A stretch of DNA of 64,000 nt from an uncultured Candidatus Rokubacteria bacterium (GCA_963708025.1 CAVPSB010000018.1:128001-192000), one strand, 5' to 3'; positions 15,203-56,490 are shown, counted from the first letter of the stretch. Numbers and translations are program-made. Notes: a model not told the origin generated them from the sequence alone.

Positions 15203-15339
15203 GTTCGGAACCTCCCGCCCACCCGATTCGTTCGACGGCCTTCGGCCTTTGGCCCCCCTTCCCCACCGTTCGACGGCCTTCGGCCTGTGGCCGTGGGGGG
15301 AGGGGGGAGTCGGAGCCATCCATTCCTCACACGCTCTCA
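15203..15339 (-). repeat. Family A junction element (2 hairpin modules)
   Basis: Minus strand: TGAGAGCGTGTGAGGAAT...CTCCGACTCCCCCCTCCCC...GGGAGGTTCCGAAC; modules at 15234-15248 and 15272-15286. Confidence 0.85.
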
Positions 15340-16164
15340 GGTCACCCGGCCCGGGCCCGCCGCCGGGAGCCGCCGCTCGATCATCCGCACGATCCACCAG
15401 GCTCCGACCGCCGAGGCCAGGTGCTTGAGCGTGTGCCCGCTCACCCCGATCGCATGAAAGATTCCGTGGTCGAAGAACTCGAAGACCTTCGCCAGCGCGT
15501 ACCAGCCTAGCACGCGGACGAGGTCCGCCGTCCCCGTGTAACGGGCCGGGAACAGCCACATGATCAGCGGGATGGCCACCAGCGTGCCGAACTGGACGAG
15601 GGCGTACGGGCGCAGGTCCCCGGTGCCCCGCTGCTCGCCGACGTGCCAGTAGAGCGTGCTCACTACGCCGACCGCCAGGAGGGGCACCAGGAGCCGGAGC
15701 CCGGCGGTGAGGTCGATCCGCTCGGCGATCACGCTCGACAGAAGCGCCATGAACGCGATCGTCATGGGCAGCCGGTCCCAGAAGAGCGTCGCGTTGTCCG
15801 GCATCCAGTGATAGTAGGCCGAGCCGACGCCGGTCAGCGCGATCCCCGCGAACACGAGCCAGTACGGCTGTCGCTCGGCCGGCGTGATGAAGGCCAGACG
15901 GGCGCCGGTGGACCGATCGCGGGCCAGGAACGCGAGGCCCGCGGCGCCGACCACCAGGAACGGAAGGTTCGAGAGCACGTTGAGGCCATTCGGCACGCCG
16001 AGCAGTCCCCGGCGATCGGCGAAGTCGTGGTAGGCGGGATCCTGGGGGATCGGCGGCACGATGAAGGTGACCCCGACCATGAGGGCCCCGAGCCCGGCGA
16101 GGAGCCAGAGGCGTCCCCGCGGCGGGCTGGCGGGCGAGCCCTCCGGTCCGAGCCCGCGAGTCAT
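15337..16164 (-). CDS. Ceramidase-like (CREST superfamily) membrane protein
   Basis: PIPQDPAYHDFADRR, NVLSNLPF, GSAYYHW.PDNATLFWDRLPMT, SGHTLKHL. Confidence 0.82.
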   Translation of the reverse strand: MTRGLGPEGSPASPPRGRLWLLAGLGALMVGVTFIVPPIPQDPAYHDFADRRGLLGVPNGLNVLSNLPFLVVGAAGLAFLARDRSTGARLAFITPAERQPYWLVFAGIALTGVGSAYYHWMPDNATLFWDRLPMTIAFMALLSSVIAERIDLTAGLRLLVPLLAVGVVSTLYWHVGEQRGTGDLRPYALVQFGTLVAIPLIMWLFPARYTGTADLVRVLGWYALAKVFEFFDHGIFHAIGVSGHTLKHLASAVGAWWIVRMIERRLPAAGPGRVT

Positions 16165-16203
16165 GCCGGGGACGGACCGGGTGGCGGCATGGCGGGCTCC
16201 AGG

Positions 16204-16614
16204 CTATCGGCCCGGCGTGACCCTGGGAAGGATGTCCGCCACCCGCAGCACGAAGCGAGCCTCCCCTCCGGCCGGGCGGATCCGGATCGTGAACGGCCAC
16301 GGCGTGGTTCCCGCGAAGTCCCGTGGGGTGGCGATCGTCCGCCCCCGGGACACGACGGATCCGCTGGCGTCCAGCCCCACCAGCTCCACCGTGACCTGGG
16401 AATAGCGATCCAGCCGCGCGGCCTCCAGCACGCCCTCCGCGACGACGGCCTCCGCCGTCTCGTCGAGCCGCCAGTGGAGCGTGACGCCCCTCGGGTCGGA
16501 CGTGTGGAGCGGCAGCTCTCCCGGCTGGGGCACCGGCCGCGGAACGCCGCAGCCGGCCAGCGCCAGGACGACCAGGGCGGCGATGCAGCGCCGCCGTGTC
16601 TGCCACCATCGCAT
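16204..16614 (-). CDS. Hypothetical lipoprotein
   Basis: MRWWQTRRRCIAALVVLALAGC lipobox; small beta-sandwich-like body. Confidence 0.65.
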   Translation of the reverse strand: MRWWQTRRRCIAALVVLALAGCGVPRPVPQPGELPLHTSDPRGVTLHWRLDETAEAVVAEGVLEAARLDRYSQVTVELVGLDASGSVVSRGRTIATPRDFAGTTPWPFTIRIRPAGGEARFVLRVADILPRVTPGR

Positions 16615-16655
16615 GGTTCTGATGCCTCGCGCGCCCGGGCGTGGTCCCGAGCGCC

Positions 16656-18191
16656 TCACCGGATCAGCAGGAAGCACGCCGCCATCACGAGGGTCGGCAG
16701 CGCGGCCCCGGCCAGGAGCCCGAGCGGGGAGATGCCCCCGTCGAAATAGCGCCCCAGGATGGCCTGCCCCGCCGGGTTGGGCGCGTTGGCGATCACCGTC
16801 AGGCCGCCGCCGGTGACGGCCCCCGCCACCACCGCGTAGCGCAGCTCGGGGGTGAACCCCGGTACGAGCGCAGCCAGGTAGGTGATGGCCGCATTGTCGT
16901 TGAAGGCGGTGAGCACGATCGACCCGGCGAACAGCGGGACGGCCGGGAGCCGGCCCAGCACCGGCTCGATCCACCACTGCTGGAGGGCCCCGTGGACGAT
17001 CAGCCCGCCCAGGAAGAAGCCCACCAGGAGCGCGGGGCGCAGGTTGAGCGGGCTCTGGTAGGGCGCGGTCGCGAGGGTGAAGGCGAGGAAGACGAGGAAG
17101 CCGCCGACGAAGAGCACCGGCGTATGGCTGGCGAACACCGTCCACGCGAGGAAGCCGAGGTGCACGGCGACGATCCACGCGGGGACGGGCGCCGCCTCCC
17201 GGGCCGCGGCGGGCGCGGTCCCGCCCGGTCGGCGGAGCGTGGCCAGCTCGCCCCGGAGCCACACCGCGTAGAGGGCGCTGGCGATCAGGATCCCGACGAT
17301 CGCCTTCCAGCCGAAGGTGCGCAGCATGAAGCCGGAGTCCCAGCCCCACCGCGTGGCGACCATCACCACCGGCGGGGCGGCGAAGTGGGTCAGCGTCCCG
17401 CCGACCGAGATGTTGACGAAGAGCAGCCCGAGCGTCGCGTAGCGGAGCCGGAGGCTCGGCCCCCGCTCGAACACCTGGCGGCCCAGGAGGAGTGCGCCGA
17501 TGATCATCGCCGCGGGCTCGGTGATGAAGGAGCCGAGGACCGGCGCGACCGTCAGGATCGACAGCCACCACGCCAGCGGGGTCCGTCCGCCGAGCGCTGC
17601 CACGCGGCCGATCACGGCCTCGGCGAACTGGAGGACGGGTCGCGTCGAGGCGAGCGCCATGATCACCGTCACGAAGACGGGCTCGGTGAAGTCGACGCCG
17701 TGGCCGATGAACGCCTCCGCCGTCTCCCATCCCCTGGCGAGGGCGATGGCGGCGAGCAGGGGGATCACCCAGACGCCAAAGACCGCCTCGACCTCACCGA
17801 GGAAATGGAGCAGCTCGGCCCTGAAGTTGAGCGCGTGACTCGGCTCGGCCTCGAGAGCCTCGCCGGGGGCCTCGGGGCCGCCGCCCGGCCCCGGCTCGTG
17901 CTGTTCCCCCCGGAGCCGGTGGGACCACGCCGTGATCCGGGCCGCGGCGAAGGTGTGGAGGATCGCCAGGCCGAACAGGACCGTCGCGACCAGGTTCAGC
18001 GGCTCGACCCGGATCCGGTGCGCCAGCACCGCCGGAAGCGACAGGCCCGCCTCGCCCTGGTAGCGATCGAGCGGAGGCGGAAACGACAGCGCGGGATCCG
18101 CGCCCGGGCCCGCGGCGAGCAGGGCGCCCGGGAGCGCCACCAGAGCCAGGACGCCGAGCGCGGCCCTGAGCCGTTGACGAGCCACTGTCAT
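16656..18191 (-). CDS. Putative Na+/H+ antiporter (DUF1504-type)
   Basis: HFLGEVEAVFG, FTEPVFV, GSFITEPAAM, NISVGGTLTHFAAPP, TGGGLTVIANAPNPAG. Confidence 0.85.
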   Translation of the reverse strand: MTVARQRLRAALGVLALVALPGALLAAGPGADPALSFPPPLDRYQGEAGLSLPAVLAHRIRVEPLNLVATVLFGLAILHTFAAARITAWSHRLRGEQHEPGPGGGPEAPGEALEAEPSHALNFRAELLHFLGEVEAVFGVWVIPLLAAIALARGWETAEAFIGHGVDFTEPVFVTVIMALASTRPVLQFAEAVIGRVAALGGRTPLAWWLSILTVAPVLGSFITEPAAMIIGALLLGRQVFERGPSLRLRYATLGLLFVNISVGGTLTHFAAPPVVMVATRWGWDSGFMLRTFGWKAIVGILIASALYAVWLRGELATLRRPGGTAPAAAREAAPVPAWIVAVHLGFLAWTVFASHTPVLFVGGFLVFLAFTLATAPYQSPLNLRPALLVGFFLGGLIVHGALQQWWIEPVLGRLPAVPLFAGSIVLTAFNDNAAITYLAALVPGFTPELRYAVVAGAVTGGGLTVIANAPNPAGQAILGRYFDGGISPLGLLAGAALPTLVMAACFLLIR

Positions 18192-18994
18192 CAGTGCTTC
18201 CGGAAGAAGGCGTGGGCGCCGGCCCCGGCGACCAGCACCGTCATCTGCTCGGGCTTGCCCCGCAGGAACTCGTCGCAGGCCGTCTTCACGCCGGGCAGGA
18301 TGTTGTTCACGTCGTGGCGGGCCGGATCGCAGTAGTCGTCCACCACGACGATCGCGTCCCTGGTCAGCCGGGGGTAGAGGTGCTCCAGGCTCTCGCGGAC
18401 CGAGCTGTAGAAGTCGCCATCGACGTGCGCGAAGCAGATCTGGCGGGGGAGCTCACGCGGCAGGGTGTCCTCGAACCAGCCCTTGTGGACGACCGGCGGC
18501 GCGGCCCCGGCCCGCCGGAAGTTCTCCACCAGCGCCTCCTCCGTCGTCCGGCAGTCGCCCGGCTCGAAGCGCGTGACCCCGTCCTCGGGAGACTTCGCCG
18601 GCAGCCCCTCGAACGAGTCGTAGACGTGGAGCCGCCGGTCGGCCCCGAGCTGGTCGAGCGTCTTCCGGAGCACGATGGCCGTCGTGCCGGCGTGGCAGCC
18701 GAGCTCGACGACGTCGCCGGGGACGTCCATGACCAGGACCTGGCTCAGCAGGTGGTAGATGTTCACGGCCTGCTCGACGGTGACCATGCCGCCCTGGAGG
18801 AGGTTCTCGTTGGGGTCGTAGCGCGAGTACTTGATCCCGAAGTGGCGGTTGAGGTCGTCGCGCTTGAACTTGAGCGCGAAGCGCCGATTGTGCCGGTTGA
18901 AGAACTTGATCGCCCGGGCCGCGAGCCGCATGCCCCGGGTCGCCTTCCGGCCGTCGTCGCGCCGGAGCGCGAGGATGAATGTGTTGTCGTTCAT
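18191..18994 (-). CDS. TylF/MycF/NovP-family O-methyltransferase
   Basis: VPGDVVELGC, YDSFEGLP, HKGWFEDTLP, HVDGDFYSS, VVDDY. Confidence 0.88.
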   Translation of the reverse strand: MNDNTFILALRRDDGRKATRGMRLAARAIKFFNRHNRRFALKFKRDDLNRHFGIKYSRYDPNENLLQGGMVTVEQAVNIYHLLSQVLVMDVPGDVVELGCHAGTTAIVLRKTLDQLGADRRLHVYDSFEGLPAKSPEDGVTRFEPGDCRTTEEALVENFRRAGAAPPVVHKGWFEDTLPRELPRQICFAHVDGDFYSSVRESLEHLYPRLTRDAIVVVDDYCDPARHDVNNILPGVKTACDEFLRGKPEQMTVLVAGAGAHAFFRKH

Positions 18995-19001
18995 CGGCGG
19001 C

Positions 19002-19715
19002 TCAGCCGCCGCCCGGGCCGCGGAGGAGTGGGACGAGGGTCCCGTACCACGCCGCGGCGATCTTCGCGTGGCCGCTCTCGTTGGGGTGGACGCCGTCTCC
19101 GATATCGGCCAGCGTGAGCCCGGCGGCGACATCGACCAGGCGGACGCGCCGGCCGGCGGCCGCCCGGGCCTGCACGACGGCGGGCAGCGCCCGGTTGAAG
19201 GCGGCCACCCGCCGGTTGGCCTCGGCGCCGGCCAGCGGCGGCAGCGTCGCGACCAGCACCGTGGCCGCCGGGAGCTGGCGTGTGATTCGGTCCAGCAGCT
19301 CGCCGAGACGAGCCGGGGCGGCGACCGCGTGGTTCTGCAGCACGTCGTTGGTCCCGATCATCAGGAGCACGATCTCGGGCCGGTGCCGCGCGAGCCAGCC
19401 GTCCACGCTCGCGGCCACCTCGTCGATCCGCCACCCCGAGTGGCCCTCGTGGTCGCGGTCACCCAGCTCGGGAGGGCCGTTCTGGAGCGAGCCGACGAAG
19501 TCGATGCGCCGCTGGTCCTGGCCCACGAGCCGGCGCCACAGCTCGATCCGGTAGCCGCCGGGGACCTGCGCGCCGTCGGTGATGGAGTCGCCGAGGGGCA
19601 TGATGCGGACCCCGGCCGCGCCGGCCGGCCCGGCGCCGGCCACCAGCACCGCCAGCACGGCGAGCCAGACGGCCCGGAGACTCAATCGACTCGAGGCCTC
19701 GGAGGAGCTGGGCAC
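19002..19715 (-). CDS. SGNH/GDSL hydrolase, secreted (start uncertain: 19715 or 19685)
   Basis: RIMPLGDSIT, HEGHSG, IGTND, DGVHPN. Confidence 0.85.
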   Translation of the reverse strand: MPSSSEASSRLSLRAVWLAVLAVLVAGAGPAGAAGVRIMPLGDSITDGAQVPGGYRIELWRRLVGQDQRRIDFVGSLQNGPPELGDRDHEGHSGWRIDEVAASVDGWLARHRPEIVLLMIGTNDVLQNHAVAAPARLGELLDRITRQLPAATVLVATLPPLAGAEANRRVAAFNRALPAVVQARAAAGRRVRLVDVAAGLTLADIGDGVHPNESGHAKIAAAWYGTLVPLLRGPGGG

Positions 19716-21199
19716 TCCGGCTCCCCCCTCCCCCCCGCCACAGGCCGAAGGCCGTCCAACGGGCGGGGGAGGGGGGTGGGGGGGGTAGGAGGGAGGTCTC
19801 GAAGATCGGGGCGACGCCGCCACCAGCCGGTGGCCTGCTCGTAGGCGTGGCCGGCGCGCAGCACGGTCGCCTCGTCGAATGGCCGCCCGACGACCGTGAG
19901 CCCGAGGGGCAGGCCGGTGGCGGAGAACCCGCACGGGACGCTGAGGGCCGGGAGCCCCAGCGCGTTCCACGGGCGCGTGAGCCGCGAGAAGCGTCCCATG
20001 CGCCGCACGATCTCCTCGGTGGTCCCGGCCTTGACGGCCTCGAGCGCCGGCGCCGGCTCGGGGATCGTCGGCATGACGAGGAGGTCCGCGTCGGGGAAGA
20101 CCTCGCGGATGAAGCTCCGGGCCAGGCGCGCGCGCAGCCGGGCCGCCTGCAGGTAGTCGTAGGCGCTCACGTGCAAGCCGACCTCGAGCCGCGCCCGCAC
20201 CGCCGGCTGGAGGACGTGCGGCTGCTCGCGGACGACCCGTCCGTGGATGGCCGCGCTCTCGCAGCGGGCGACGATGTTGGCGACGTCGGCGAGGATCTGC
20301 GGGTCCGGCAGCGGCCGCTCTCCGACGCGGGCGCCCAGCTCGGCCAGGACGGCGACCGCCGCGCGCACGCCGGCCGCGACCTCCCCGTCGAGCCCCTCCC
20401 AGTAGTAGCCTTGGGGCACCACGACGCGGAGCCCGGCGATCGGCCGGTCCAGCGCCGCGGTGTAGTCGGGGACGGGACGGCGGCTGGAGGTGGCGTCGAG
20501 GGGATCGTGGCCGGCGATGACCGCGAGGAGCAGGGCTGCATCGCGGACGGTCCGGGCCATGGGGCCGACGTGGTCGAGCGACCACGAGAGTGGCATCGCG
20601 CCGGCCCGGCTCACGCGCCCGTAGGTCGGCTTGAGCCCGACGATCCCGCAGCAGGCGGCGGGGAGCCGGATGGAGCCGCCGGTGTCGCTGCCGAGGGCGC
20701 CCGGCACGAGCCCGGCGGCGACGGCCGCCCCGGAGCCGCTCGAGGAGCCGCCGGCGGCGTGGCCAGGCCGCCAGGGCGTCTGGGCGTCGCCCCGGTGGGC
20801 GTTGTCGCCGAACGGGCCGAGAGCCAGCTCGCTCAGGTTGAGCTTGCCGAGCGTGATCGCGCCGGCCGCCGCCAGCCGCGCCACGACGGTGGCGTCGCCC
20901 TCCGCCACGAAGTACTCATCGGTCTTGGTGCCGCAGGAGGTCGGCAGCCCCCGGACCGCGAAGAGGTCCTTGTAGGCGAGCGGGACCCCGTGGAGCGGAC
21001 CCCGGAGCCGGCCGGCGCGCGCCTCGGCCTCCCGCGCCTTTGCCGTCTCACGCGCGCGCTCGCCGTCCACCGTGATGAAGGCGTGGAGCCGCCCGTCGAG
21101 GCGCTCGATCCGCTGCAGGCACGCCTCGGTCAGCTCGACGGGCGAGAGGCGGCCGGCACGGATCCCGGCGGCCAGCTCGGTCAGGGTCGCGTCAGTCAT
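19682..21199 (-). CDS. Amidase-signature family protein (GatA/AtzE-like)
   Basis: GPLHGVPLAYKD, GGSSSGS, GSDTGGSIRLPA, GLKPTYGRVS; last ~40 aa derive from a repeat element. Confidence 0.92.
   Translation of the reverse strand: MTDATLTELAAGIRAGRLSPVELTEACLQRIERLDGRLHAFITVDGERARETAKAREAEARAGRLRGPLHGVPLAYKDLFAVRGLPTSCGTKTDEYFVAEGDATVVARLAAAGAITLGKLNLSELALGPFGDNAHRGDAQTPWRPGHAAGGSSSGSGAAVAAGLVPGALGSDTGGSIRLPAACCGIVGLKPTYGRVSRAGAMPLSWSLDHVGPMARTVRDAALLLAVIAGHDPLDATSSRRPVPDYTAALDRPIAGLRVVVPQGYYWEGLDGEVAAGVRAAVAVLAELGARVGERPLPDPQILADVANIVARCESAAIHGRVVREQPHVLQPAVRARLEVGLHVSAYDYLQAARLRARLARSFIREVFPDADLLVMPTIPEPAPALEAVKAGTTEEIVRRMGRFSRLTRPWNALGLPALSVPCGFSATGLPLGLTVVGRPFDEATVLRAGHAYEQATGWWRRRPDLRDLPPTPPTPLPRPLDGLRPVAGGRGEPECPAPPRPRVD
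19715..19803 (+). repeat. Family A element (1 module), antisense to the genes, inside the amidase 3' end
   Basis: CTCCGGCTCCCCCCTCCCC..AGGCCGAAGGCCGTC(19742-19756)..GGGAGGTCTCGAA. Confidence 0.8.
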
Positions 21200-21359
21200 G
21201 CGGGCGCTCGGGGGGGAGGGCCTCGGGCTCGGGAGCGCCGGCCTCCAGCGCGGCCAGGAAGCGCGCCGGCTCCTCGGCGAGGGCGAGGTCCCCGGCCGCG
21301 CGCTCGATCACCGCGGCGAAATCGGCGAGCGGACCCTGGAGCGCGCGCTCAGCGGGCAT
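21192..21359 (-). CDS. 55-aa protein coupled to the amidase (possible AtzG/GatC-like partner)
   Basis: MPAERALQGPLADFAAVIERAAGDLALAEEPARFLAALE...; overlaps the CBS gene stop and the amidase start; below the ORF-track length cutoff. Confidence 0.55.
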   Translation of the reverse strand: MPAERALQGPLADFAAVIERAAGDLALAEEPARFLAALEAGAPEPEALPPERPHD

Positions 21360-21993
21360 CGTGGGGGTTCACCGGAGTCGAGGCGGGCTCGGCGTCCGGC
21401 GCCGATACGATCGTGAGCCCGGCCGCCCGCAACACCTCGAGCACCCGGCCCAGGTCGCGCGTCTCGATGGACAGCTGCACCCGCTCGGGTCGGACCCCGC
21501 GGCCGAGGGGCTCGAGGGTCGCCACGAGCAGGCGGGCGACCTCGAGCCCGAGCGAGCGGACGGCGGAGTGGGCCTGGGCCATCGCGTCCGGCCGGTATAC
21601 CACCACCACCTCGCTCATGCGTCCGCCGACCTGGACCCGCATCATGTTGACGAGGGCCGCCACCGCGTCGGTCTGGGTGAGGATCCCGACCAGCTTGCCC
21701 TCCTCGATCACCGGCAGGCAGCCGATGCGCCGGTCGAAGAGGAGCCGCGCCGCCTTGTCCATCGCGGTGCGCGGACTGACCACGACGACCGGGTGGCTCA
21801 TGATGGCGTCCACCCGCGTGCCGGGATCCACGCCCCGGAGGTCCCGATCGGTGACGACGCCCACGACGCGGTCCCCCTCCATCACCGGGAGGTGGCGGAT
21901 GCCGTGGCCGCGCAGGAGGGCCACGGCGTCGGCCGCCGTCGTCCGGGGCCGGACCGTGTGCACGGGACTCGACATCCAGGAAGAGACCTGCAT
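21349..21993 (-). CDS. CBS-pair protein with C-terminal ACT-like domain (AcuB-like)
   Basis: IRHLPV..VGVVTDRDLR and IGCLPV..LVGILTQTD. Confidence 0.85.
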   Translation of the reverse strand: MQVSSWMSSPVHTVRPRTTAADAVALLRGHGIRHLPVMEGDRVVGVVTDRDLRGVDPGTRVDAIMSHPVVVVSPRTAMDKAARLLFDRRIGCLPVIEEGKLVGILTQTDAVAALVNMMRVQVGGRMSEVVVVYRPDAMAQAHSAVRSLGLEVARLLVATLEPLGRGVRPERVQLSIETRDLGRVLEVLRAAGLTIVSAPDAEPASTPVNPHDAR

Positions 21994-22066
21994 GCTCAGT
22001 CCCAAGAATGCCCGAGGGCCATCCGGACGCGCAAGGGGACGCCGGGCACCGAGGACAGTTTCGAGT

Positions 22067-22082: not shown

Positions 22083-22107
22083 ATGGCTTCCGGTGGAGGT
22101 GCGAATC

Positions 22108-23840: not shown

Positions 23841-23849
23841 ACTCGTCGC

Positions 23850-29664: not shown

Positions 29665-31680
29665 TGCGCGCCCTGGCGGCGCGCCTCCCCGGCCTCGGCT
29701 GGGTCATCCGCTGGCGCGCGCTCCCCCTCGGCCGCCGCCGCCAGATCCTCGCGGTCGTCCTGCTCGCGGTCGGCCTCGCGTTTCCGCTGGTCGTGACCAA
29801 CGCCGGGAACGTGGACGCCGCCGCCAACGCCTACACCTACGTCCTGCTCGCCCTCGGCCTGAACATCGTCGTCGGCTTCGCGGGCCTCCTCGACCTCGGC
29901 TACGCGGCGTTCTTCGCCATCGGCGCCTACGGCTACGGGATCGCCGCCTCGTCGCAGCTCAAGCTGCCGTGGTCCGACGTGTGGACACCCCTCCTCTGGC
30001 TCGGCCAGGTGGCCCGCGTGTCCGTCGAGGGGCAGCCCGATCTGGTCAAGCTCCAGTTCTCGTTCTGGGGAATGCTGGCCGTGGGCGCGCTCGTCTGCGC
30101 CCTGTTCGGCGTCCTGTTCGGCGCGCCCACGCTGCGGCTCCGGGGCGATTACCTGGCCATCGTGACCCTCGGGTTCGGTGAGATCGTCCCGGTGGTCGCC
30201 CGCAACTGGGAGTGGCTGACCAACGGGGCGCAGGGGCTCGGCGGGATCAAGACGCCGACGCTGTTCGGCTACGAGTTCGGCTTCTCGCCCTACCCCTACT
30301 ACTTCCTCGGGCTCGGGCTGGTCGCCCTGGCCATCTTCTGCTCCCTCCGTCTCCAGGAGTCGCGGGTGGGACGGGCCTGGCGGGCGATCCGCGAGGACGA
30401 GCTGGCGGCCGGGGCGATGGGCGTCAACCCTGTCCATTACAAGCTCCTGGCGTTCGCGATCGGCGCGGCCGTGGGCGGACTGGGGGGAGTCTTCTACGTC
30501 GCCAAGCTGACGACCGCGACGCCGGACATGTTCACGTTCCCGGTGTCGGTCATGGTGCTCGTGATGGTGGTGCTCGGCGGGATGGGGTCGGTCCGCGGCG
30601 TGGTGCTGGCCGCGCTGATCCTCGCGTTCCTCCAGTCGGTGATCCTCCAGGAGCTGACGGAGTACGTCCACGCCCTCGGGCGGCTGGTGGGCAGCGACTT
30701 CCTCCAGAGGGTCCAGCTCATCACCTCGCTCGAGCTGATCTTCGGCCTGATCCTCGTGCTGATGATGCTCTTCCGCCGGGAGGGCCTGTTCCCGGCGGTG
30801 CGGCGGGTCACCGCGCTGAGCCTCGAGCAGCAGGCGGCGGTGCCGTCGCGCGGCGGGGCGGTCCGGCTGTCGTGGATGGAGGATCGGCCGGCCGCGCGCC
30901 CGGGTCCGCTCCTGGAGATCGAGGGCCTGACCAAGCGGTTCGGCGGCGTGGCGGCGGCGGATGGCATCGACCTCGTGGTGGCGCCCGGCGAGCTGGTGAG
31001 CGTGATCGGGCCGAACGGCTCGGGGAAGACGACCCTCTTCAACCTGATCACCGGCCTGGCCGAGCGGGACTCGGGCACGGTGCGGCTCGAGGGAGTCACC
31101 ATCGGCGGCCTCGCCGTCCCACGAGATCGTGGCCCGCGGCATCGCGCGGACGTTCCAGAACATCCGGCTGTTCAACAACCTGAGCGTGCTGGAGAACATG
31201 CTGGTCGGCGAGCACGCCCGCCTGACGTCGGGGGCGCTGGGCGCGATCGTCCGCCTGCCCGGCGTCCGGGCCGAGGAGCGGCGCGCGGTGGAGAGCGCGC
31301 TCGAGGTGCTCGGCCTGTTCGGCAACCGCCTACTGCCGCGGCTCGACCACCCGGTCTACGGGCTGTCGTACGCCAACCGGCGGCGGACGGAGATCGCCCG
31401 GGCGATCATGACCCGGCCGAAGCTCCTCCTGCTCGACGAGCCGGCCGCCGGGATGAACCCGGCCGAGACGCTCGAGCTGATGGACCTGGTCAAGGCGCTC
31501 CGCGGCCTGGGGGTCACGATCATCCTGATCGAGCACAAGCTGGACGTGGTCATGGACGTCTCGGACCGCGTCGTCGTGCTGGACCACGGCGTCAAGATCG
31601 CCGAGGGGAAGCCGGCCCTGGTGCGCAACGACGAGAAGGTGATCGAGGCGTACCTGGGAAGGCGGCGGCGAGTCGCGTGA
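29664..31680 (+). CDS. livM: Fused LivM permease-LivG ATPase, with +1 frameshift near 31113
   Basis: GLNIVVGFAGLLDLGY and LRLRGDYLAIVTLGFGEI run in frame into GPNGSGKTT; continues in another frame as RGIARTFQNIRLF..LLDEPAAG..VIEAYLG. Confidence 0.88.
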
Positions 31681-31921
31681 TGGCCGGGCCGATACCCGTC
31701 GCGATCTCCGTCTCGGCCGTGACGCGCTCGGCCTGCGTCGATCGGACGGCCTTCGGCCTGGGGGCGTCCGTCCCGGCCTATGGTCGTCGATCGGACGGCC
31801 TCCGGCCTCTGGGGTCGTCGCCGATCCTCGGCGTACTCGGAGTACGCCTGCGGTCAGCGACACCCTGCGTTCTTCGGACGGCCTTCGGCCTGCGGGGGCT
31901 GCTCGGGTCTCGGCCCGGCCA
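31681..31921. mobile_element. Family B MITE-like element, copy 1 (3 hairpin modules)
   Basis: 17-bp TIR TGGCCGGGCCGATACCC/GGGTCTCGGCCCGGCCA (1 mismatch); flanking direct repeat TGATGGCCGGG at 31678-31688 and 31932-31942. Confidence 0.8.
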
Positions 31922-31933
31922 AGGGGTCGGCTG

Positions 31934-32680
31934 ATGGCCGGGGCGGGGGCGAACGGAAAGCTGCTCCTCCAGTTCACCGACGTCCACACCTACTACGGAG
32001 CGCTCCACGTCCTGAAGGGGGTGTCGTACGAGATCTACGAGGGGGAGATCGTCTCCCTCCTCGGCGGGAACGCGTCCGGCAAGTCGACGACGATGAAGAC
32101 GGTGCTCGGCCTGGTGCGGCCGGCCGAGGGGACGGTGACCTTCCGGGGCCAGCCGATCCACACCCTGCGCACGGCCGAGATCGTCAGGCGCGGGATCGCC
32201 CCGGTGCCCGAGGCCCGGCGGGTCTTCCCGAGGATGACGGTGCTGGAAAATCTCGAGATGGGCCGCTACACTCGCCGGAACCAGCCCGGATGGGAGGCCG
32301 AGCTGGACCGCGTGTACGGCCTCTTCCCGGTGCTGAAGGACCGACGGACCCAGCTCGCCGGCACCATGTCGGGGGGCGAGCAGCAGATGCTCGCGATCGG
32401 GCGCGCGCTGATGGCCAACCCGACCCTGCTCTGCATGGACGAGCCGTCGATGGGGCTCTCCCCGGGGTACGTCGAGCAGGTCTTCGACATCATCCGGGCC
32501 ATCAACGAGCAGGGGACCACCATCTTCGTCGTCGAGCAGAACGTGAACATGGCGCTCTCGATCGCCCACCGGGGCTACGTGCTCCAGATGGGCGAGGTGG
32601 TGCTGGCCGGCACCGCCCGGGAGCTGCTGGAGAGCCCGCTGATCAGGAAGGCGTATCTAGGCGCCGCCGCCGAGGCATGA
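31934..32680 (+). CDS. livF: BCAA ABC ATPase
   Basis: GGNASGKST, VPEARRVF, AGTMSGGEQQMLAIGRALM, DEPSMGL, VEQN. Confidence 0.95.
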   Translation: MAGAGANGKLLLQFTDVHTYYGALHVLKGVSYEIYEGEIVSLLGGNASGKSTTMKTVLGLVRPAEGTVTFRGQPIHTLRTAEIVRRGIAPVPEARRVFPRMTVLENLEMGRYTRRNQPGWEAELDRVYGLFPVLKDRRTQLAGTMSGGEQQMLAIGRALMANPTLLCMDEPSMGLSPGYVEQVFDIIRAINEQGTTIFVVEQNVNMALSIAHRGYVLQMGEVVLAGTARELLESPLIRKAYLGAAAEA

Positions 32681-32682
32681 GC

Positions 32683-32829
32683 GGCGCCGGGCCGATACCC
32701 TTCGCATCGCGTCGTCGTTTGGACGGCCTTCGGCCTTTGGGGTCGTCGCCGATCCTCGGCGTACTCGGAGTACGCCTGCGGTCGGGGACTCCCTGCGTCC
32801 TAGCGCTGCTCGGGTCTCGGCCCGGCGCC
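32683..32829. mobile_element. Family B MITE-like element, copy 2 (1 module)
   Basis: 18-bp TIR GGCGCCGGGCCGATACCC/GGGTCTCGGCCCGGCGCC; shares TGGGGTCGTCGCCGATCCTCGGCGTACTCGGAGTACGCCTGCGGTC with copy 1. Confidence 0.8.
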
Positions 32830-35396: not shown

Positions 35397-35533
35397 CATT
35401 TCGGGACCTCCCGCCCTCCCGATCCTTCGACGGCCTTCGGCCTTTGGCCCCCCTCCCCCACCGCCCGACGGCCTTCGGCCTTTGGCTGGGGGGAGGGGGG
35501 AGTCGGAGGCCCTGATTCCTTCACACCCTCTCA
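35397..35533 (-). repeat. Family A junction element (2 modules)
   Basis: Minus strand: TGAGAGGGTGTGAAGGAAT..CTCCGACTCCCCCCTCCCC..GGGAGGTCCCGAAATG; modules at 35429-35443 and 35467-35481. Confidence 0.85.
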
Positions 35534-36355
35534 GCCCTTCAGGCCGGTGAGCGCGATGCCGCGGATCATGAACTTCTGGGAGACGGCGTAGGCCAGCAGC
35601 ATCGGCCCGGTGGCGATGACGGTGGCGGCCATCAACGGCCCGTAGTTGATGCTGCCGTACGGGTCCTTGAAGAGTGCGATGCCGACCGGCAGCGTCCGGA
35701 GCTCCTGCGAGTTGATGACGATGACCGGCCACAGGAAGTCGTTCCAGGAGCCCAGGAAGAGGATCATCGCCACGGTGGCCAGCGTCGTCTTGATGAGCGG
35801 GGTGATGATGGTGAGCACGATGCGGACCTCGCCGGCCCCGTCGATCCGGGCGGCCTCGATCAGGTCCACCGGGATGGCCTTGATCCCCTGGCGGATCATG
35901 AAGACGCCGAAGGCGCTGGCGAAGTTCGGGGCCAGGATGCCGAGATAGGTGTCCACCCACTCGATCCGGGCCAGGAGCACGTAGAGGGCGACCGAGGTCA
36001 CCTGGACCGGGACCATGAGCGTGCTCAGGATCAGCAGGAAGAGGACGGTCTGGAGCGGGAACCGGTAGACGGCGAAGGCGTAGCCGGCGAAGAGCCCGAA
36101 GGCGAGCGAGCAGCCGACCGAGACCACGGCGACGACCAGGCTGTTCCGGTAGTAGCTGAGCCAGGGCGCCTTGGCGAAGGCCGTCGCGAAGTGCTCGGCG
36201 GTCAGCCGGCTCGGGATCCACTTCGGCGGGAACGCGAGGATGTCCGAGGCCGGGCTGACCGCCGTCACCACCATCCAGTAGAAGGGCAGGATCATCAGGA
36301 CGGCGACCGCCGTCACCACGGTGAACAGCGCGATCCGGCCCGCGGCCCGGGTCAT
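35531..36355 (-). CDS. Carbohydrate ABC permease (MalG-like)
   Basis: IPVDLIEAARIDGA EAA loop, WNDFLWP; an in-frame upstream ATG at 36490 would include the repeat. Confidence 0.92.
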   Translation of the reverse strand: MTRAAGRIALFTVVTAVAVLMILPFYWMVVTAVSPASDILAFPPKWIPSRLTAEHFATAFAKAPWLSYYRNSLVVAVVSVGCSLAFGLFAGYAFAVYRFPLQTVLFLLILSTLMVPVQVTSVALYVLLARIEWVDTYLGILAPNFASAFGVFMIRQGIKAIPVDLIEAARIDGAGEVRIVLTIITPLIKTTLATVAMILFLGSWNDFLWPVIVINSQELRTLPVGIALFKDPYGSINYGPLMAATVIATGPMLLAYAVSQKFMIRGIALTGLKG

Positions 36356-36357
36356 CG

Positions 36358-36447
36358 AGCCCCCCCCCACCCATGGACGGCCTCGGCCTTTGCGACCCCT
36401 CCCCACCACTCGACGGCCTTCGGCCTTTGGCCGGGGGGAGGGGAGAT
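36358..36447 (-). repeat. Family A-related element (2 modules) between the permease genes
   Basis: GACGGCCTCGGCCT at 36376-36389 and GACGGCCTTCGGCCT at 36412-36426, inside CCCCTCCCC/GGGGAGGGG stems. Confidence 0.75.
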
Positions 36448-36489
36448 GCGCGTTGCACGGGCCCTGGGCGATCCGCTTCAGACGCCCCA

Positions 36490-50313: not shown

Positions 50314-50317
<4 letters not shown>
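48790..50317 (+). CDS. gntK: FGGY-family gluconokinase, several frameshifts
   Basis: [59 protein letters not shown]. Confidence 0.85.
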
Positions 50318-52325
<2,008 letters not shown>

Positions 52326-52329
<4 letters not shown>

Positions 52330-53888
52330 GCGGCCCGGCGGCGACCAGCCCGGCGGCCCCCGAGGCGATGGAGGCGAACCCGCTCCGGGCCGGGCTCGGG
52401 GGCGAGCGGGCGCTGGATCCCTGCGTCGTGGTCATCTTCGGAGCGACCGGCGACCTGGCGCGCCGGAAGCTCCTGCCCGCCCTCTACGCCCTCGCCCTCG
52501 AGCATCGCCTCCCGGTCGGCCTGACCGTCCTCGGCGTGGCGCGCAAGCCCGTGGGCGACGCGGAGTTCCGGAAGCAGATGCGGGAAGCGGTGGCCGCCCA
52601 CGGCCGGTCCGGCGCGCCGGCCGACGTGGAGTGGGAGCCGTTCGCCGAGGGGCTCTTCTACCAGGACCTGGACTACAGCGACCCGCGGGCGTACGGCGCG
52701 CTCGCCGAGCGCCTGACCCGGCTCGACGCCGAGCGCGGCACCCGCGGCAACTACCTCTTCTACCTGGCGACCCCGCCGTCGGTCTTCCCGGTGGCGGTCA
52801 CCCAGCTCGGCGCGGCCGGGCTGGCGCGCTCGGGGACCGGCTGGCGCCGCGTCGTCATCGAGAAGCCGATCGGCCACGACCTGGCCTCGGCCCGCGCGCT
52901 GAACACGGTGATCGCGGAGTCGTTCGACGAGTCGCAGGTCTACCGGATCGACCACTACCTGGGCAAGGAGACCGTCCAGAACCTCCTGGTCTTCCGCTTC
53001 GCCAACGGGATCTTCGAGCCGCTCTGGAACCGGGCCCACGTGGACAACGTCCAGATCACGGTGGCCGAGTCGCTGGGCGTGGAGGGGCGCGGCGCCTACT
53101 ACGAGGAGGCCGGCGTCCTCCGCGACATGGTGCAGAACCATCTCCTCCAGCTCCTCTGCCTGGTCGCGATGGAGCCGCCGGCCACCTTCGCCGCCGACCA
53201 CGTGCGGGACGAGAAGACGAAGGTGCTCCGTGCCATCCGGCCGATCCGACCCGACGACGTCGAGCGCGTCGCCGTGCGCGCCCAGTACGAACGGGGCGCG
53301 ATCCTCGGGGAGCCGGTGCCCGGCTACCGGGAGGAGCCGGGCGTGGCGCCGGCCTCGACGACCGACACCTACACGGCGGTGCGGCTCGACGTGGACAACT
53401 GGCGCTGGTCCGGGGTGCCCTTCTACCTCCGCTCGGGCAAGCGGCTGACCCGGCGGCTGAGCGAGATCGCGCTCCAGTTCCGGCGGCCGCCCCAGCTCCT
53501 GTTCGGTCCCCACGTCGAGGAGCTCCAGCCGAATAGCCTGGTGGTGCGGATCCAGCCGGACGAGGGGATCGCCCTCCGGTTCGCGGCCAAGCTGCCCGTC
53601 CAGGAGTTCCAGCTCCGCCCGGTGACGATGGACTTCCGCTACGGCACCTCGTTCGGGATCGCGGCGCCGGAGGCCTACGAGCGCCTCTTGCTCGACGCGA
53701 TGCGCGGCGATCCGACGCTCTTCGCCCGGGCCGACTGGGTGGATGCGGCGTGGCAGGTGCTGGCGCCCATCCAGGCCGCCTGGGCCGCCGGGCCGCCGAA
53801 GCTTCCCACCTACGAGGCGGGGAGCGCGGGGCCTCGCGAGGCGGACGAGCTGCTGGAGCGGGAGGGGCGCCGGTGGCGCCGCCTGTGA
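52326..53888 (+). CDS. zwf: Glucose-6-phosphate 1-dehydrogenase
   Basis: [37 protein letters not shown]. Confidence 0.97.
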
Positions 53889-53902
53889 GCGGCCCGGTAT
53901 CT

Positions 53903-53995
53903 CCTCCGCTCCCTCTCCCTTCCAGGGAGAGGGTGGGGGTGAGGGTGTGCCGGTGCGCGTGGTCCTGGCCCTCTCCCCCGATGGGGGAGAGGGAA
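53903..53995. repeat. Family C double palindrome between zwf and opcA
   Basis: CCCTCTCCCTTCCAGGGAGAGGG-TGGGGGTGAGGG and CCCTCTCCCCCGATGGGGGAGAGGG. Confidence 0.7.
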
Positions 53996-54008
53996 ACGAG
54001 GTAGGTCT

Positions 54009-55124
54009 GTGAGCAGTCCGGGTGTCCCGGTCGTCCTGCACGACCTCGGCGCGGTCGAGGGCGAGCTGGAGCGGCTCTGGCAGGCCAACGCGGCGCCGGC
54101 GGACGGGCAGGCGGCGCGGGCCGTCATGCGGGCCGCGACGTTCAACCTGATCGCCATCGTGCCGAGTGAGCGCGACGCCGACCGGGCCTGTGCCGTCCTC
54201 GGGGGTGTCACCGCCCAGTACCCCGGGCGGGTGCTGATCGTGGACGTCGAGCCGGACGCCACCCCGCCGGGCCTGGTGGCATGGGTCGCGATGCACTGCC
54301 GCGGCATCGACGGCGCCGCCCAGATCTGCGGCGAGCAGATCGTCATCCGGGCGGCCGGCGACGCGGTGGATCGCCTCGGCGGCGCGCTGGCCGCGCTGCT
54401 CCTGCCCGATTGCCCGGTCGTCCTCTGGTGGCAGGGCGGACCGGGCCCGGCCGGCGTCCTGCTCGACCGGCTGGCGCCCATGGTGGATGCGGTGCTGCTC
54501 GACGGCGCCCGCTTCACGCCGGAGACCCTGCCCCGCTGGGTAGAACGCGCCCGGGGCCACGACGCGACTGCGGTGGGTGACTCTGCCTGGGAGCGGGGCG
54601 CGCCGTGGCGGGGCTGGACGGCGGACGGCTTCGAGCCGCGCGCGCTGCGCGCGAGCCTCGGCCGGATCCGCGCCGTGAGCGTCGAGTGCGGGGAGCGGGG
54701 CGAGATGACCGGGCTTCTCTACGTCGCCTGGCTGGCGAGCCGCCTGGGCTGGCGTCCGGACCCGGGCCTCGCCCGCTCCGACGGGACCGGGTGGGCGGGC
54801 ACGCTCGCCGGGCCCGAGGGGCCGGTCGCCGTCGCCCTGCGCGCGGAGGGGCCGGGGGCGGACCTGTGCGGCGCGACGCTCGAGGCCGACGGCCTGCGCT
54901 GCGCCCTGACGCGCGAGAGCCCGGAGTGCGGCGCGGTGACCGTCACCCGCGGGGCGGGCGTGGCGCTCCGCGGCGCCGCCCGCGTCCCGGCGACGGACGA
55001 GGTCCGGCTGGTCGGCCGGTGGCTCGAGGCGCCACGCTGGGACCCGCTCTACGGTGACGCGCTCGTGGCGCTGGCGGCGATCTGCCGCGCCGGCGCCGGC
55101 CCGGCGGTCACGCCCGGAACGTGA
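54009..55124 (+). CDS. opcA: G6PD assembly/activator protein OpcA
   Basis: Follows zwf; RAATFNL, PGRVL, ICGEQI, LLLPDCPVVLWW, WLASRLGW. Confidence 0.85.
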   Translation: MSSPGVPVVLHDLGAVEGELERLWQANAAPADGQAARAVMRAATFNLIAIVPSERDADRACAVLGGVTAQYPGRVLIVDVEPDATPPGLVAWVAMHCRGIDGAAQICGEQIVIRAAGDAVDRLGGALAALLLPDCPVVLWWQGGPGPAGVLLDRLAPMVDAVLLDGARFTPETLPRWVERARGHDATAVGDSAWERGAPWRGWTADGFEPRALRASLGRIRAVSVECGERGEMTGLLYVAWLASRLGWRPDPGLARSDGTGWAGTLAGPEGPVAVALRAEGPGADLCGATLEADGLRCALTRESPECGAVTVTRGAGVALRGAARVPATDEVRLVGRWLEAPRWDPLYGDALVALAAICRAGAGPAVTPGT

Positions 55125-56340
55125 ACGCCGGGTCGAGCGGGGGGAGCGGGGCGCCGAAGAAGAGTCGCCGCTGGAGGCGGGGCGCCAGCGGCGAGCGGAG
55201 CGCGAGCGGCAGCACCCACGGCAGGAGCGCGCGCACGAGCCGGCTCCCCCGGGCCTGGGCGAGGAGCAGCGCCTGGGCCCGGAGCTGGAGCTGGTGGAGC
55301 GTCCGCACGTCCCCCTCCCGCTGCGCCTGGACTCGGGCCAGGTCCGTCGCCCGGATCGGCCCGCGGCCGAGCCGCTGGTAGATCTCCTGGGCGGCCACCG
55401 CCGCCGTCGCCAGCGCCACGTTGACGCCGATCGCCCCGGCCGGGCTCATCGTGTGGGCGGCGTCCCCGATCAGCAGCAGACCGTCCCGAGCCCACTCCTT
55501 CACCAGCCGGATCAGCCCCTCCAGCGGGAAGAACGGGGTGAAGTCGCGCAGGCCGTCGGCGAAGCCGCCGAACACCGGGTCGAGGCGGCGGATGCGCGCG
55601 GCCACCGTGGCGACGCCCGTCTCGCGCCACCGCCGCCACTCGCCCTTCGGGAGGAAGATCCCCGCCTGGATGTGGCGCGGGTACTTCGGCAGCATCAGGC
55701 CCTGGACGTCCCGGCCCAGCGAGATGTAGATGGTGCTCGGCCAGTCGGCCGGCTGGTCGACGACGAACCAGATGATCTCGAAGTCGAGGTGCTCGTACTC
55801 GACGGCGAAGGCCCCCAGCCGGCGGAGCTGCGAGTACCGACCGTCGGCACCCACCACCAGGTCGGCCCGGACCTCGAACGGCTCCTTGCCGTGGCGCACG
55901 CCGCGTACGCCGACCACCACGCCGCCCTCCTCGACCAGCCCGGTGACCTTCGCGCCCATCCAGCACTGGAAGCTCGGGAACGGCTCGGCCTTGCGGAGGA
56001 GCGCCTCGAGGAAGATCGGCTGGGGCATCCAGATCGCGTAGGGGTATTCCGGGGCGATCCGGCTGAACCGGAACTCCCCCGCCGGCCGGCCGTTGACCCG
56101 GACGAGCCCGGAGGTCAGCGTGGAGTGCGGCTGAGCGCGCACGTACTCGAGGAGGCCCAGCTCGTCCAGGAGATGGGCCGTGCTCGGCTGGAGGACCTCG
56201 CCCCGGAACTCGCGGTCGAAGTTCTCGTGCCCCTCGAGCACGACGACCGGGGCACCGCGCTTGGCCAGCAAGAGCCCGAGCAGCAGGCCGGCCGGCCCCC
56301 CGCCGACGATGCAGACACCGGTCTTGATCGGGGCCATCAT
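55108..56340 (-). CDS. FAD-dependent monooxygenase (UbiH/PheA-like)
   Basis: GGGPAG, FDREFRGE, VGADGRYS, LIGDAAHTMSPAGAIGVN. Confidence 0.9.
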   Translation of the reverse strand: MMAPIKTGVCIVGGGPAGLLLGLLLAKRGAPVVVLEGHENFDREFRGEVLQPSTAHLLDELGLLEYVRAQPHSTLTSGLVRVNGRPAGEFRFSRIAPEYPYAIWMPQPIFLEALLRKAEPFPSFQCWMGAKVTGLVEEGGVVVGVRGVRHGKEPFEVRADLVVGADGRYSQLRRLGAFAVEYEHLDFEIIWFVVDQPADWPSTIYISLGRDVQGLMLPKYPRHIQAGIFLPKGEWRRWRETGVATVAARIRRLDPVFGGFADGLRDFTPFFPLEGLIRLVKEWARDGLLLIGDAAHTMSPAGAIGVNVALATAAVAAQEIYQRLGRGPIRATDLARVQAQREGDVRTLHQLQLRAQALLLAQARGSRLVRALLPWVLPLALRSPLAPRLQRRLFFGAPLPPLDPAFTFRA

Positions 56341-56490
56341 TTCGGGATCTCCCGCCTACCCCCCAACCCCCCTCCCGTCCGACGGGATCGTCGGGACGGC
56401 TTGGGCCTGCGGCCCTCGCGACGTCGACGGCCTTCGGTCGGCACGGGGGGGAGGGGGGGCCGGACGATTCCGTTCCTTCTCATGCCATCA
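56338..56490 (-). repeat. Family A element (1 near-intact and 1 degenerate module) supplying the downstream ATG
   Basis: Minus strand: TGA..GAGAAGGAA..CCCCCCCTCCCC..CCGAAGGCCGTC..GGCGGGAGATCCCGAAATG. Confidence 0.75.

Follow-up and report, generated by a model that had tools for sequence, protein, structure and literature searches.

Occurrence of the module in the window

This locus raises the question of why one short hairpin sequence recurs, in varying copy number, inside repeats that are otherwise unrelated, and whether it belongs to these repeats or is a unit in its own right. The initial annotation of the window, i.e., the whole 64-kb stretch of DNA analyzed, placed a module with the core 15-mer GACGGCCTTCGGCCT at about 12 positions, and all 12 hold it or a decayed copy (nine exact, three variants). 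At no more than one mismatch, there are 10 matches in the window against 0.01 expected from shuffled sequences, and 0 of 100 shuffles reach 10. The copies and their host elements are the following.

15204..15340, minus strand: family A host element between carbonic-anhydrase and ceramidase-like genes (both minus strand); its right end, CTCTCA, contains the stop codon of the upstream gene
15234..15248, plus strand: module, exact, internal-loop site ("A_left") of the family A element
15272..15286, plus strand: module, exact, apical loop of the family A C-run/G-run hairpin 15253-15307
19742..19756, minus strand: module, exact, apical loop of the family A hairpin 19723-19776; the sole module of that element
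31681..31920, plus strand: family B host element copy 1, multi-armed, between livG-like and livF-like ABC ATPase genes; three modules (31745, 31794 and 31877)
31745..31759, plus strand: module, exact, apical loop of family B arm 1
31794..31808, plus strand: module with one substitution (TCC loop), junction preceding family B arm 2
31877..31891, plus strand: module, exact, junction between family B arm 2 and the closing stem
32681..32829, plus strand: family B host element copy 2, 3' of the livF-like stop codon; one exact module (32722-32736)
35400..35534, minus strand: family A host element in the spacer between ABC permease and aminotransferase genes; exact modules at 35429-35443 and 35467-35481
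36351..36485, minus strand: family A2 host element between two ABC permease genes; a module with a 1-nt deletion (36376-36389) and an exact module (36412-36426)
56341..56491, minus strand: family A-type element; within its hairpin loop lie an empty arm1-like (E) hairpin (56393-56414 plus a CTC loop) and a decayed module with two substitutions (56426-56440)
61697..61787, plus strand: family A element without module, between lgt and lnt

The number of modules differs between copies of the same scaffold, as had been proposed. Family A elements carry none (hairpin 61729-61760, with the empty 7-nt loop GGTGGGT), one (19723-19776) or two (15234/15272 and 35429/35467), and family B carries three in copy 1 versus one in copy 2. 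Copy 2 has no module between arm 2 and the closing stem (CGTCCTAGCGCTGC, about 32798-32811) and reads CCCTGCGTCCTAGCGCTGCTCG where copy 1 has CCCTGCGTTCTTCG-module-GCGGGGGCTGCTCG. Whole host elements are polymorphic: both family B copies are missing from the orthologous locus L095, and the whole 135 bp of the family A2 element is missing from contigs of four public runs.

Abundance and structure of the module

We searched the 8.17 Mb, 99.7%-complete source genome, which is Rokubacteria/Methylomirabilota-like, and found 501 exact occurrences of the 15-mer (253 plus, 248 minus), where composition predicts 0.08 and an order-3 Markov model 0.20. It ranks first in frequency among all 15-mers of the genome, so that the suspected over-representation is amply borne out. 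Allowing one mismatch brings the number to 627 copies (501 of them exact) spread over 433 loci, and 444 of 516 copies are intergenic according to a crude gene caller. Around the core, the cassette consensus is NN-TYS-GACGGCCTTCGGCCT-KTGG, a unit of 21-24 nt. The minus strand reads GGCC-GAA-GGCC, i.e., a 4-bp stem (GGCC) and a 3-nt loop, and a GACG/CGTC motif adjoins the stem. Nearest-neighbour folding gives this hairpin only -3 to -3.4 kcal/mol.

Host families and module sites

At least three unrelated families of intercistronic repeats host the module: A (about 285-377 copies), B (about 156) and C (about 100), in addition to minor ones. The picture of repeats nested within repeats is right. 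Its limitation to families A and B holds for the window but not for the genome, where family C and the minor arm types D/E also carry the module; in the sister genus it sits in yet another scaffold. Side observations on the hosts are that the family A1 element is bounded by (C)TCAG at both sides, and one family B copy by a 13-nt direct repeat.

Within these hosts, the module occupies fixed positions that are predicted to be unpaired (apical loops, internal loops and helix junctions), namely the A loop, the A internal loop, the B arm-1 loop, the B junctions on both sides of arm 2, and the C loop. As a point against a structural target, minimum free energy folding put the module within an enclosing stem at only 75 of 200 sampled sites, versus 38 of 200 random positions. 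The idea that it inserts into palindrome loops is not supported as it stands, since about half of the sites are internal loops or helix-helix junctions and not apical palindrome loops.

Occupied and empty sites

Alignments of occupied with empty copies give clean presence or absence: of 17155 flank pairs, 11893 (69%) differ by a net 21 nt, 1686 by 20 nt and 1625 by 22 nt, and 466 module sites have an empty counterpart. The same step recurs in each family. The hairpin loop of family A measures 7 nt in 485 of 754 two-strand hits and about 28 nt with the module in 111; at the right junction of family B, 72 copies have 23 nt and 65 have 44 nt; and in family C, 42 loops measure 5 nt and 24 measure 26 nt. 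Full-length family B copies from unlinked loci align end to end except for one 21-nt gap. In adjacent tandem family A copies on one contig (C12), the aligned element flanks match and the loop is CCA in one and TGTTT-core-TTGG in the other. About 24 nt stand in place of 3, which is more than the plain insertion originally imagined. No target duplication surrounds the module in any of seven contexts, and it lacks the combination of terminal inverted repeats and target-site duplication that defines MITEs. The module is a discrete unit, nested in unrelated hosts.

The edges of this unit speak in two directions. The core varies by 0.04-0.08 bits and empty sites are uniform, while junction nucleotides are hypervariable in two contexts, with 1.5-1.75 bits at positions -5/-4 of the B right junction. 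Other junctions are nearly uniform (TG in 28 of 32 C loops; GT in 36 of 49 copies before family B arm 2), which fits a single ancestral insertion per context, spread later by recombination. This leads to a reading that we hold possible, if doubtful, in which the module is a passive sub-motif of mosaic REP/BIME-like repeats, with no mobility of its own, serving as a functional piece such as a site for a nucleoid, repair or RNA-processing protein. It would have reached each host position in one or a few ancient events, and its patchiness would stem from sub-family amplification and short-tract gene conversion or template switching. In 71 of 72 family A scaffolds the module points the same way relative to its host; this fixed orientation and the uniform junctions in two contexts would also fit few ancient insertions followed by recombination. 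The core is also more uniform than many host positions, as expected for a constrained site; the occupancies of the two family A sites are associated (odds ratio 8.5); the genome has no transposase to move the module; and mosaic REP systems with extra motifs are described in PMC3733652. Against a passive origin, the module occurs in at least six unrelated contexts, so that one and the same stretch of 21-24 nt would have had to be transferred six times or more, and the left junction ACTGTTT, found in the otherwise matching tandem family A pair, is unique (1 of 111).

Occupancy and host lineage

Evidence bearing on the choice between a passive and a mobile module comes from family C, in which 33 of 100 copies are occupied. 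On a tree built from the left flank, occupancy requires 30 changes, versus 28.2 for shuffled labels (p 0.93). As controls, 18 of 21 polymorphic right-flank columns do cluster on this tree (p at most 0.03); one of them, only 5 nt away from the loop, follows the other flank closely (4 changes vs 26.4). Module presence in family C is independent of the lineage of the host copy, as predicted for a unit that moves separately. Since occupancy is unlinked even from the column 5 nt off the loop, every gene conversion tract would have to stop inside the 10-nt stems. The lineage signal is limited to family C, because in families A and B even the control characters show scarcely any clustering. Both families show all four occupancy combinations of two sites (184, 47, 17 and 37 of 285 in A; 65, 33, 18 and 40 of 156 in B).

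The proposal of a second-order mobile micro-element stands in part: the module is discrete, nested and, in family C, lineage-independent. Its fixed orientation and the lack of a RAYT speak against the proposal, as does the comparison of strains, where no 21-nt indel at a module site appears among the rows listed (short contigs from four public runs, with a further 101 indel rows and 583 joint rows beyond those listed).

Orientation and transcription

The hosts are strongly oriented to transcription (A 90 to 6, B 90 to 13, C 24 to 3) and fold well as RNA (z -3.7 and -2.1). These properties, and the intergenic position of most copies, would suit a sequence-specific RNA element, such as an RNase or RNA-binding-protein site or an mRNA-stabilizing hairpin, kept by selection in operon spacers. 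We consider this unlikely. Family A carries the module antisense to transcription, whereas families B and C carry it in the sense direction, so that the transcripts differ in sequence (GAA vs UUC loop), and any function is more likely to lie at the DNA level or to be purely structural. Moreover, convergence cannot yield 501 identical 15-mers, and Rfam covariance models gave 0 matches at gathering score within the 64-kb window.

Arrays and distribution in relatives

Tandem copies of the module have a period of 20-21 nt, and all copies are in direct orientation at 159 of 161 multi-copy loci. In relatives, full modules stand between left-half and right-half units whose numbers are correlated (Spearman 0.61, n = 76), a pattern that insertion of one copy into another's loop would produce; where any half is present, the two numbers are equal at 14 of 32 loci and unequal at 18. 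No such nested half-unit arrays were seen in the source genome. The module is restricted to one lineage: compared with the 501 copies here, there are 7-68 in 14 of 15 sister-genus genomes and 0-1 in all others searched, and a species-wide scan returned 64 loci, 43 of which are titled Rokubacteria/Methylomirabilota.

Search for a transposase

The initial annotation had also envisaged an HUH (RAYT-like) transposase flanked by the module, and this expectation failed. A search of the source genome for Y1_Tnp (RAYT/HUH, Pfam PF01797) gave 0 matches, while the same search was positive in 6 of 14 control genomes. Among seven searched sister-genus genomes, four have a Y1_Tnp gene, and 0 of 4 RAYT-like loci of relatives have a module within 1.5 kb; no candidate enzyme for the module was found. 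Although the module resembles REPs (20-40 bp) in being a short, palindromic, GC-rich, extragenic repeat of hundreds of copies with GACG/CGTC beside its stem, and although sister genomes possess Y1_Tnp genes, a classical REP/REPIN system mobilized by a RAYT (Y1/HUH) transposase is highly improbable, since the genome richest in copies has no such gene, the relatives' RAYT-like loci stand apart from the module, copies are direct and do not form inverted doublets, and stem and loop (4 bp and 3 nt vs 8-9 bp and 4-5 nt) as well as the mirrored order of tag and tail depart from the CGTC REPs (PMC3733652).

A candidate mobile cassette

On balance, we lean toward the module being an ultra-small, non-autonomous, structure-seeking mobile cassette that is gained and lost separately from its host repeats; it looks like one of the smallest known mobile DNA units. 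Such a cassette would move in its own right, with unpaired loops as its target, by a mechanism acting on folded single strands. Insertion would be strand-specific, with one orientation per host, would replace about 3 loop nucleotides and leave no target duplication, and would not need a RAYT transposase. More tentatively, we may picture a free-standing 21-nt element, among the smallest in bacteria, that targets tips and junctions left unpaired when single-stranded DNA folds, its own loop among them. It might be copied by a templated, strand-specific, RAYT-independent process, in which 3 loop nucleotides are replaced and sometimes two untemplated ones added, and may in this way have colonized three operon-splitting repeat families in Rokubacteria.

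The spread of very short repeats that have no transposase of their own (REP, BIME, SDR, organelle palindromes) is a long-standing problem. The module is a favorable case, with one sharp 21-nt unit and, in three unrelated hosts, hundreds of occupied and hundreds of empty sites whose structure is known. It also gives a clean statistical signal, in that presence of the unit is uncoupled from host descent and no RAYT accounts for the spread. In such a well-defined case, the target rule (an unpaired loop, a fixed strand, 24 nt for 3) becomes testable, and a comparison of module-rich with module-free genera within one family could lead to the enzyme. On the practical side, the host repeats split translationally coupled genes and break Rokubacteria assemblies, which matters for annotation and assembly.

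Comparison with known systems

The REP, BIME and REPIN sequences of E. coli and Pseudomonas are, like the module, GC-rich extragenic hairpins in hundreds of copies, located mostly between co-directional or convergent genes and forming mosaics with other motifs (PMC3733652, PMC3116915). The module differs in its direct arrays, its much shorter stem, the absence of a RAYT from the genome, and its position inside other repeats and not beside them. The CGTC-tagged REPs, including Neisseria dRS3, share with the module CGTC/GACG beside the stem and a CCA/TGG tail, and are reported to lack a dedicated transposase (PMC3733652). These consist of a 5' unpaired CGTC tag, a stem of 8-9 bp starting with A/T pairs, a loop of 4-5 nt and a 3' CCA tail, and units of dRS3 are assembled into mosaics (Di Nocera et al., 2013, PMC3733652). 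The module falls outside this super-family: on its CGTC strand, CGTC is 3' and CCA 5', so that tag and tail are mirrored (GACG-stem-loop-stem-TGG on one strand), and its copies run head-to-tail and not head-to-head.

In the organelle genomes of Volvox carteri, the short palindromic repeats (Smith and Lee, 2009, PMC2670323) are AT-rich and comprise one class nested in itself, whereas the module is one cassette at fixed structural positions of several unrelated bacterial host families. As to structure, the initial annotation had invoked the stability of C(GAA)G mini-hairpins, and a review backs this for d(GCGAAGC)-type DNA mini-hairpins (Hirao and co-workers), with CC..GG closing pairs acceptable (PMC13037366). 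The minus strand of the module contains CC-GAA-GG, and among the 67 empty copies of family C, 26 have precisely GCGAAGC as their loop; the review concerns physical chemistry and not genomic repeats, and the module's own value of about -3 kcal/mol is a nearest-neighbour estimate. Our literature search found no published account of the repeats of this phylum.

Nostocaceae are said to carry small dispersed repeats, SDR1-8. An SDR is a dispersed unit of 21-27 nt, recognized as a clean insertion when sequences that are otherwise similar are compared, also inside other repeats. The module behaves in this manner, with its clean net difference of 21 nt and its nesting in families A, B and C. SDRs share with it a dispersed unit of about 20 nt, in some cases a hairpin, located inside other repeats and sometimes in tandem, and they are thought to be mobile without a known transposase (see also PMC5861425, PMC2884548 and PMC3116915). 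They differ in sequence and hosts, and belong to Cyanobacteria and not Methylomirabilota. Given its distribution in Rokubacteria/Methylomirabilota, the module is at most an analogue of SDRs; compared with these by description only, it is set apart by its hosts, which are transcription-oriented, intercistronic structured repeats, and by its sites, which are their unpaired positions.

Abundance of the Module

The 15-nt hairpin GACGGCCTTCGGCCT, referred to here as the module or core, is matched 10 times in the window at ≤1 mismatch, against 0.01 expected from dinucleotide-preserving shuffles. Reading the sequence at each of the 12 places named in the initial annotation, we found the module or a decayed copy at every one; nine copies are exact and the rest are variants.

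Variant copies of the module in the window
31794: one substitution
36376: 1-nt deletion
56426: two substitutions

The copy numbers proposed in the same annotation also hold. Elements of family A, one of the larger intercistronic repeats that host the module, carry none (61729-61760), one (19723-19776), or two; copy 1 of family B has three modules and copy 2 has one, with an empty site at the exact position occupied in copy 1.

Across the 8.17-Mb assembly (71% G+C) there are 501 exact occurrences of the 15-mer (253 plus, 248 minus), compared with 0.08 expected by composition and 0.20 by an order-3 Markov model, and it ranks first in frequency among all 15-mers of the genome. Allowing ≤1 mismatch gives 627 copies at 433 loci genome-wide, the commonest single-mismatch variant accounting for just 30 copies, and conservation extends beyond the core to T-Y-S on the 5' side and K-T-G-G on the 3' side. 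The observation of a repeated module is confirmed. The assembly is 99.67% complete and 8.18% contaminated, and a few contigs may derive from another organism; because the module is dispersed across many contigs, this affects the counts little.

Host Repeat Families

Sorting all loci by their flanks showed that at least three unrelated structured repeats host the module. Signature motifs were used for this sorting; single-linkage BLAST clustering put 402 of the 433 loci in one cluster. In family A, a C-run/G-run hairpin, CCCCCCTCCCCC-loop-GGGGGGAGGGGGG, is set within an outer stem; about 377 such hairpins exist genome-wide (754 matches on two strands), both outer markers being present in 285. 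Family B (156 parsed copies) begins directly after stop codons and has a closing stem plus inner arms, which number one to three. Family C (100 copies) reads GAAGACCCCCCC...GGCCGCG, loop, GCCGCGGCTCGAAGCGGAACGCC. Two minor arm types, D and E, are similar to arm 1 of family B. Rfam gave zero family matches within the window.

A crude gene caller based on GC3 classes 444 of the 516 module copies as intergenic, and the window genes flanking the hosts are ordinary (Liv-type and sugar ABC transporter, aminotransferase, lgt/lnt, and others). Relative to co-directional flanking genes, every host family shows a strong preference for one orientation, which the module as a whole does not share: with respect to transcription it is antisense in 90 cases and sense in 6 in family A, but sense copies outnumber antisense ones in family B (90 to 13) and family C (24 to 3).

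Several individual copies deserve mention. A module-free family C copy with a shortened hairpin lies directly after a TAA stop codon at about 405-474 of the window. On contig C2 of the source genome (216084-216583), six family A hairpins with identical stems and an identical loop, AGTGGGT, recur with a period of about 100 nt, forming a tandem array of entire host elements. The family A copy at 19723-19776 has the rare orientation relative to its neighbouring genes. In the region 19682-19856, the open frame called for an amidase gene continues through this hairpin, extending 58 residues past the point where the Pfam amidase match stops; the element may lie inside the 3' end of the amidase gene, or else the crude gene call is overlong.

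Occupied and Empty Sites

Each module site with 45-nt flanks was BLASTed against the genome, and abutting left- and right-flank matches were paired. An empty counterpart was found for 466 module sites, and among the 17155 pairs of occupied and empty flanks the net difference was most often 21 nt (11893 pairs), followed by 20 nt (1686) and 22 nt (1625). One rule describes five contexts: about 24 nt (two junction nucleotides, TYS, core, KTGG) replace 3 nt, which at the empty sites are CCA, CTA, CTC, CTC, and GAA. The aligned occupied and empty sites show no target duplication.

Lengths of empty and occupied sites
Family A loop: empty 7 nt, occupied about 28 nt
Family C loop: empty 5 nt, occupied 26 nt
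Family B right junction: empty 23 nt, occupied 44 nt

Unlinked full-length copies of family B align end to end with a sole gap of 21 nt. Similarly, a pair of neighbouring tandem copies of family A on contig C12 match along the aligned element flanks and differ in the loop, which is CCA in one and TGTTT-core-TTGG in the other. It is established that the module is nested and is either present or absent at a site.

Independence From Host Descent

On a tree built from the left flanks of family C, 18 of 21 polymorphic right-flank columns group (p ≤ 0.03, label shuffling), showing that family C lineages hold together from one side of the loop to the other. Occupancy by the module (33 of 100 copies) needs 30 changes on this tree, where shuffled labels give 28.2 (p 0.93); among the control columns that are linked, one is just 5 nt away from the loop. 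Both families with two scored sites display all four occupancy combinations (184/47/17/37 of 285 in family A, 65/33/18/40 of 156 in family B), the two family A sites being associated with an odds ratio of 8.5. Occupancy in families A and B is also unlinked to their trees, a result of little weight because control characters barely cluster on the same trees.

The pair of nucleotides preceding TYS at the right junction of family B is hypervariable, with 1.5 and 1.75 bits against 0.08 bits for the core; the empty form of this junction is CGTCCTAGC in 58 copies. The family A loop has 40 distinct left junctions among 111. These variable junctions suggest many separate events. Near-uniform junctions are found in the C loop (TG in 28 of 32) and at the site before B arm 2 (GT in 36 of 49), suggesting one origin per context.

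The best-supported reading, which we consider somewhat probable, is that the module moves on its own, as the initial annotation had proposed; it is based on the module being shared by unrelated hosts and on the lineage test in family C. Its main rival is a passive, perhaps protein-bound sub-motif redistributed via very short conversion tracts, an explanation that we regard as possible but rather doubtful.

Distribution in Relatives

Among 41 genomes, the source genome has 501 module copies, and those of genera and families other than its own and the sister genus have 0-1. In the sister genus, 14 of 15 genomes carry 7-68 copies, the one without being 71% complete, and the usual host is yet another scaffold, with GCTCA at both boundaries. 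A one-genome-per-species scan returned at least 64 loci; among the matches listed, 43 have Rokubacteria/Methylomirabilota-type titles, three "uncultured bacterium" loci have the scaffold of Rokubacteria/Methylomirabilota loci, and most others look like chance matches in coding sequence.

At many loci of the sister genus the module forms arrays in which left-half units (GGACGGCCTT + GATC) precede a full module and right-half units (CGGCCTGTGG) succeed it. The numbers of left and right halves are correlated (Spearman 0.61, n = 76) and equal in 14 of 32 loci with any half. We take these arrays to reflect the insertion of new copies into the loops of existing ones; alternatively, independent slippage on both sides, with selection for pairing, may have produced them. 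A search for nested half-unit arrays in the source genome found none.

Position, Orientation, and Folding

The module occupies the apical loop in the family A hairpin, family B arm 1, family C, and D/E, an internal loop at the left site of family A, and helix junctions on both sides of family B arm 2. The proposed insertion into loops of palindromes thus describes about half of the copies, the others being in the internal loop or at helix junctions. By MFE folding, 75 of 200 module sites are enclosed by a stem compared with 38 of 200 random positions, a weak signal. Of 161 multi-copy loci, 159 contain only direct repeats of the module; the preferred spacings are 38, 83, 20-21, 49, and 111-112 nt. 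Orientation is also fixed with respect to the scaffold of family A (identical in 71 of the 72 hairpins that allow it to be determined), and for this reason we rejected the idea that a free fragment was captured by non-homologous end joining at the tips of broken hairpins.

According to a review of DNA mini-hairpins (PMC13037366), the melting temperature of GCGAAGC is 76.5 C, closure by CC..GG pairs is acceptable, TTC loops are ordinary, and standard folding parameters miss this stability. Judging from its sequence, the module strand with the GAA loop would fit this class; standard parameters give it about -3 kcal/mol. Genome-wide, 26 of 67 empty family C copies have the loop GCGAA within GCGAAGC, the classical DNA mini-hairpin.

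Host Elements as Insertions

In four public runs, each from a different study, contigs join positions 36350 and 36486, and one of 693 nt spans this joint at 9 mismatches. Close relatives therefore lack the entire 135-bp family A2 element, including both of its modules. In the form without this element (36351-36485), two ABC permease genes overlap as TGATG. The element brings its own ATG, and the downstream protein starts M-T-R instead of M-G-R. Among the rows listed for short contigs of the four public runs, none had a 21-nt indel at module sites.

In an orthologous metagenome locus (L095, 89% protein identity), livG/livF overlap as TAATG with a 19-nt spacer downstream, so that neither family B copy is present. 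The module was found in 0 of 80 livF-like orthologue loci from metagenomes, whose best proteins (89% and 83% identical) are too diverged to allow a comparison at the level of the module. On both sides of family B copy 1 lies a 13-nt direct repeat, TGATGGCCGGG[C/G]C (31678-31690 and 31932-31944), which spans the stop/start overlap and first codons of the livF-like gene.

Family A1 elements (e.g., 15204-15340 and 35400-35534) have (C)TCAG at both boundaries: of 198 elements, 79 carry NTCAG in the left flank and 83 carry CTCAG at the right end, and left and right agree 4/4 in 47 compared with 36.8 when shuffled. The right-hand TCA is the stop codon of the upstream gene, and the transcribed strand ends in the Shine-Dalgarno-like GGGAGGTCCCGAA just ahead of the downstream gene. 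These elements look like MITE-like inserts that divide coupled genes without disrupting them.

Transposases and Comparison With Known Systems

The RAYT-like HUH transposase flanked by the module that the initial annotation envisaged is absent in the source genome (99.7% complete), where the Pfam Y1_Tnp model has 0 matches. Such genes occur, one or two each, in four of seven searched sister-genus genomes, and 0 of 4 loci have a module within 1.5 kb. These loci (L175-L178, in relatives G010, G007, G004, and G009) are single Y1_Tnp (IS200/RAYT-like) genes with open frames of at least 313 aa; IS200 TnpA is usually shorter.

We rejected membership of the module among CGTC-tagged REPs on tag/tail order, stem, loop, and arrangement. 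Compared with these REPs, as defined in PMC3733652, the module has its tag and tail in mirror order, a stem of 4 bp rather than 8-9 bp, and an unlike loop (3 nt) and arrangement (head-to-tail). Our literature search found no published account of such repeats for Rokubacteria/Methylomirabilota. Precedents for tiny nested units reportedly include the cyanobacterial SDRs of Elhai et al. in 2008. Another is provided by the palindromes of Volvox organelles, described as "inserted into one another" (PMC2670323).
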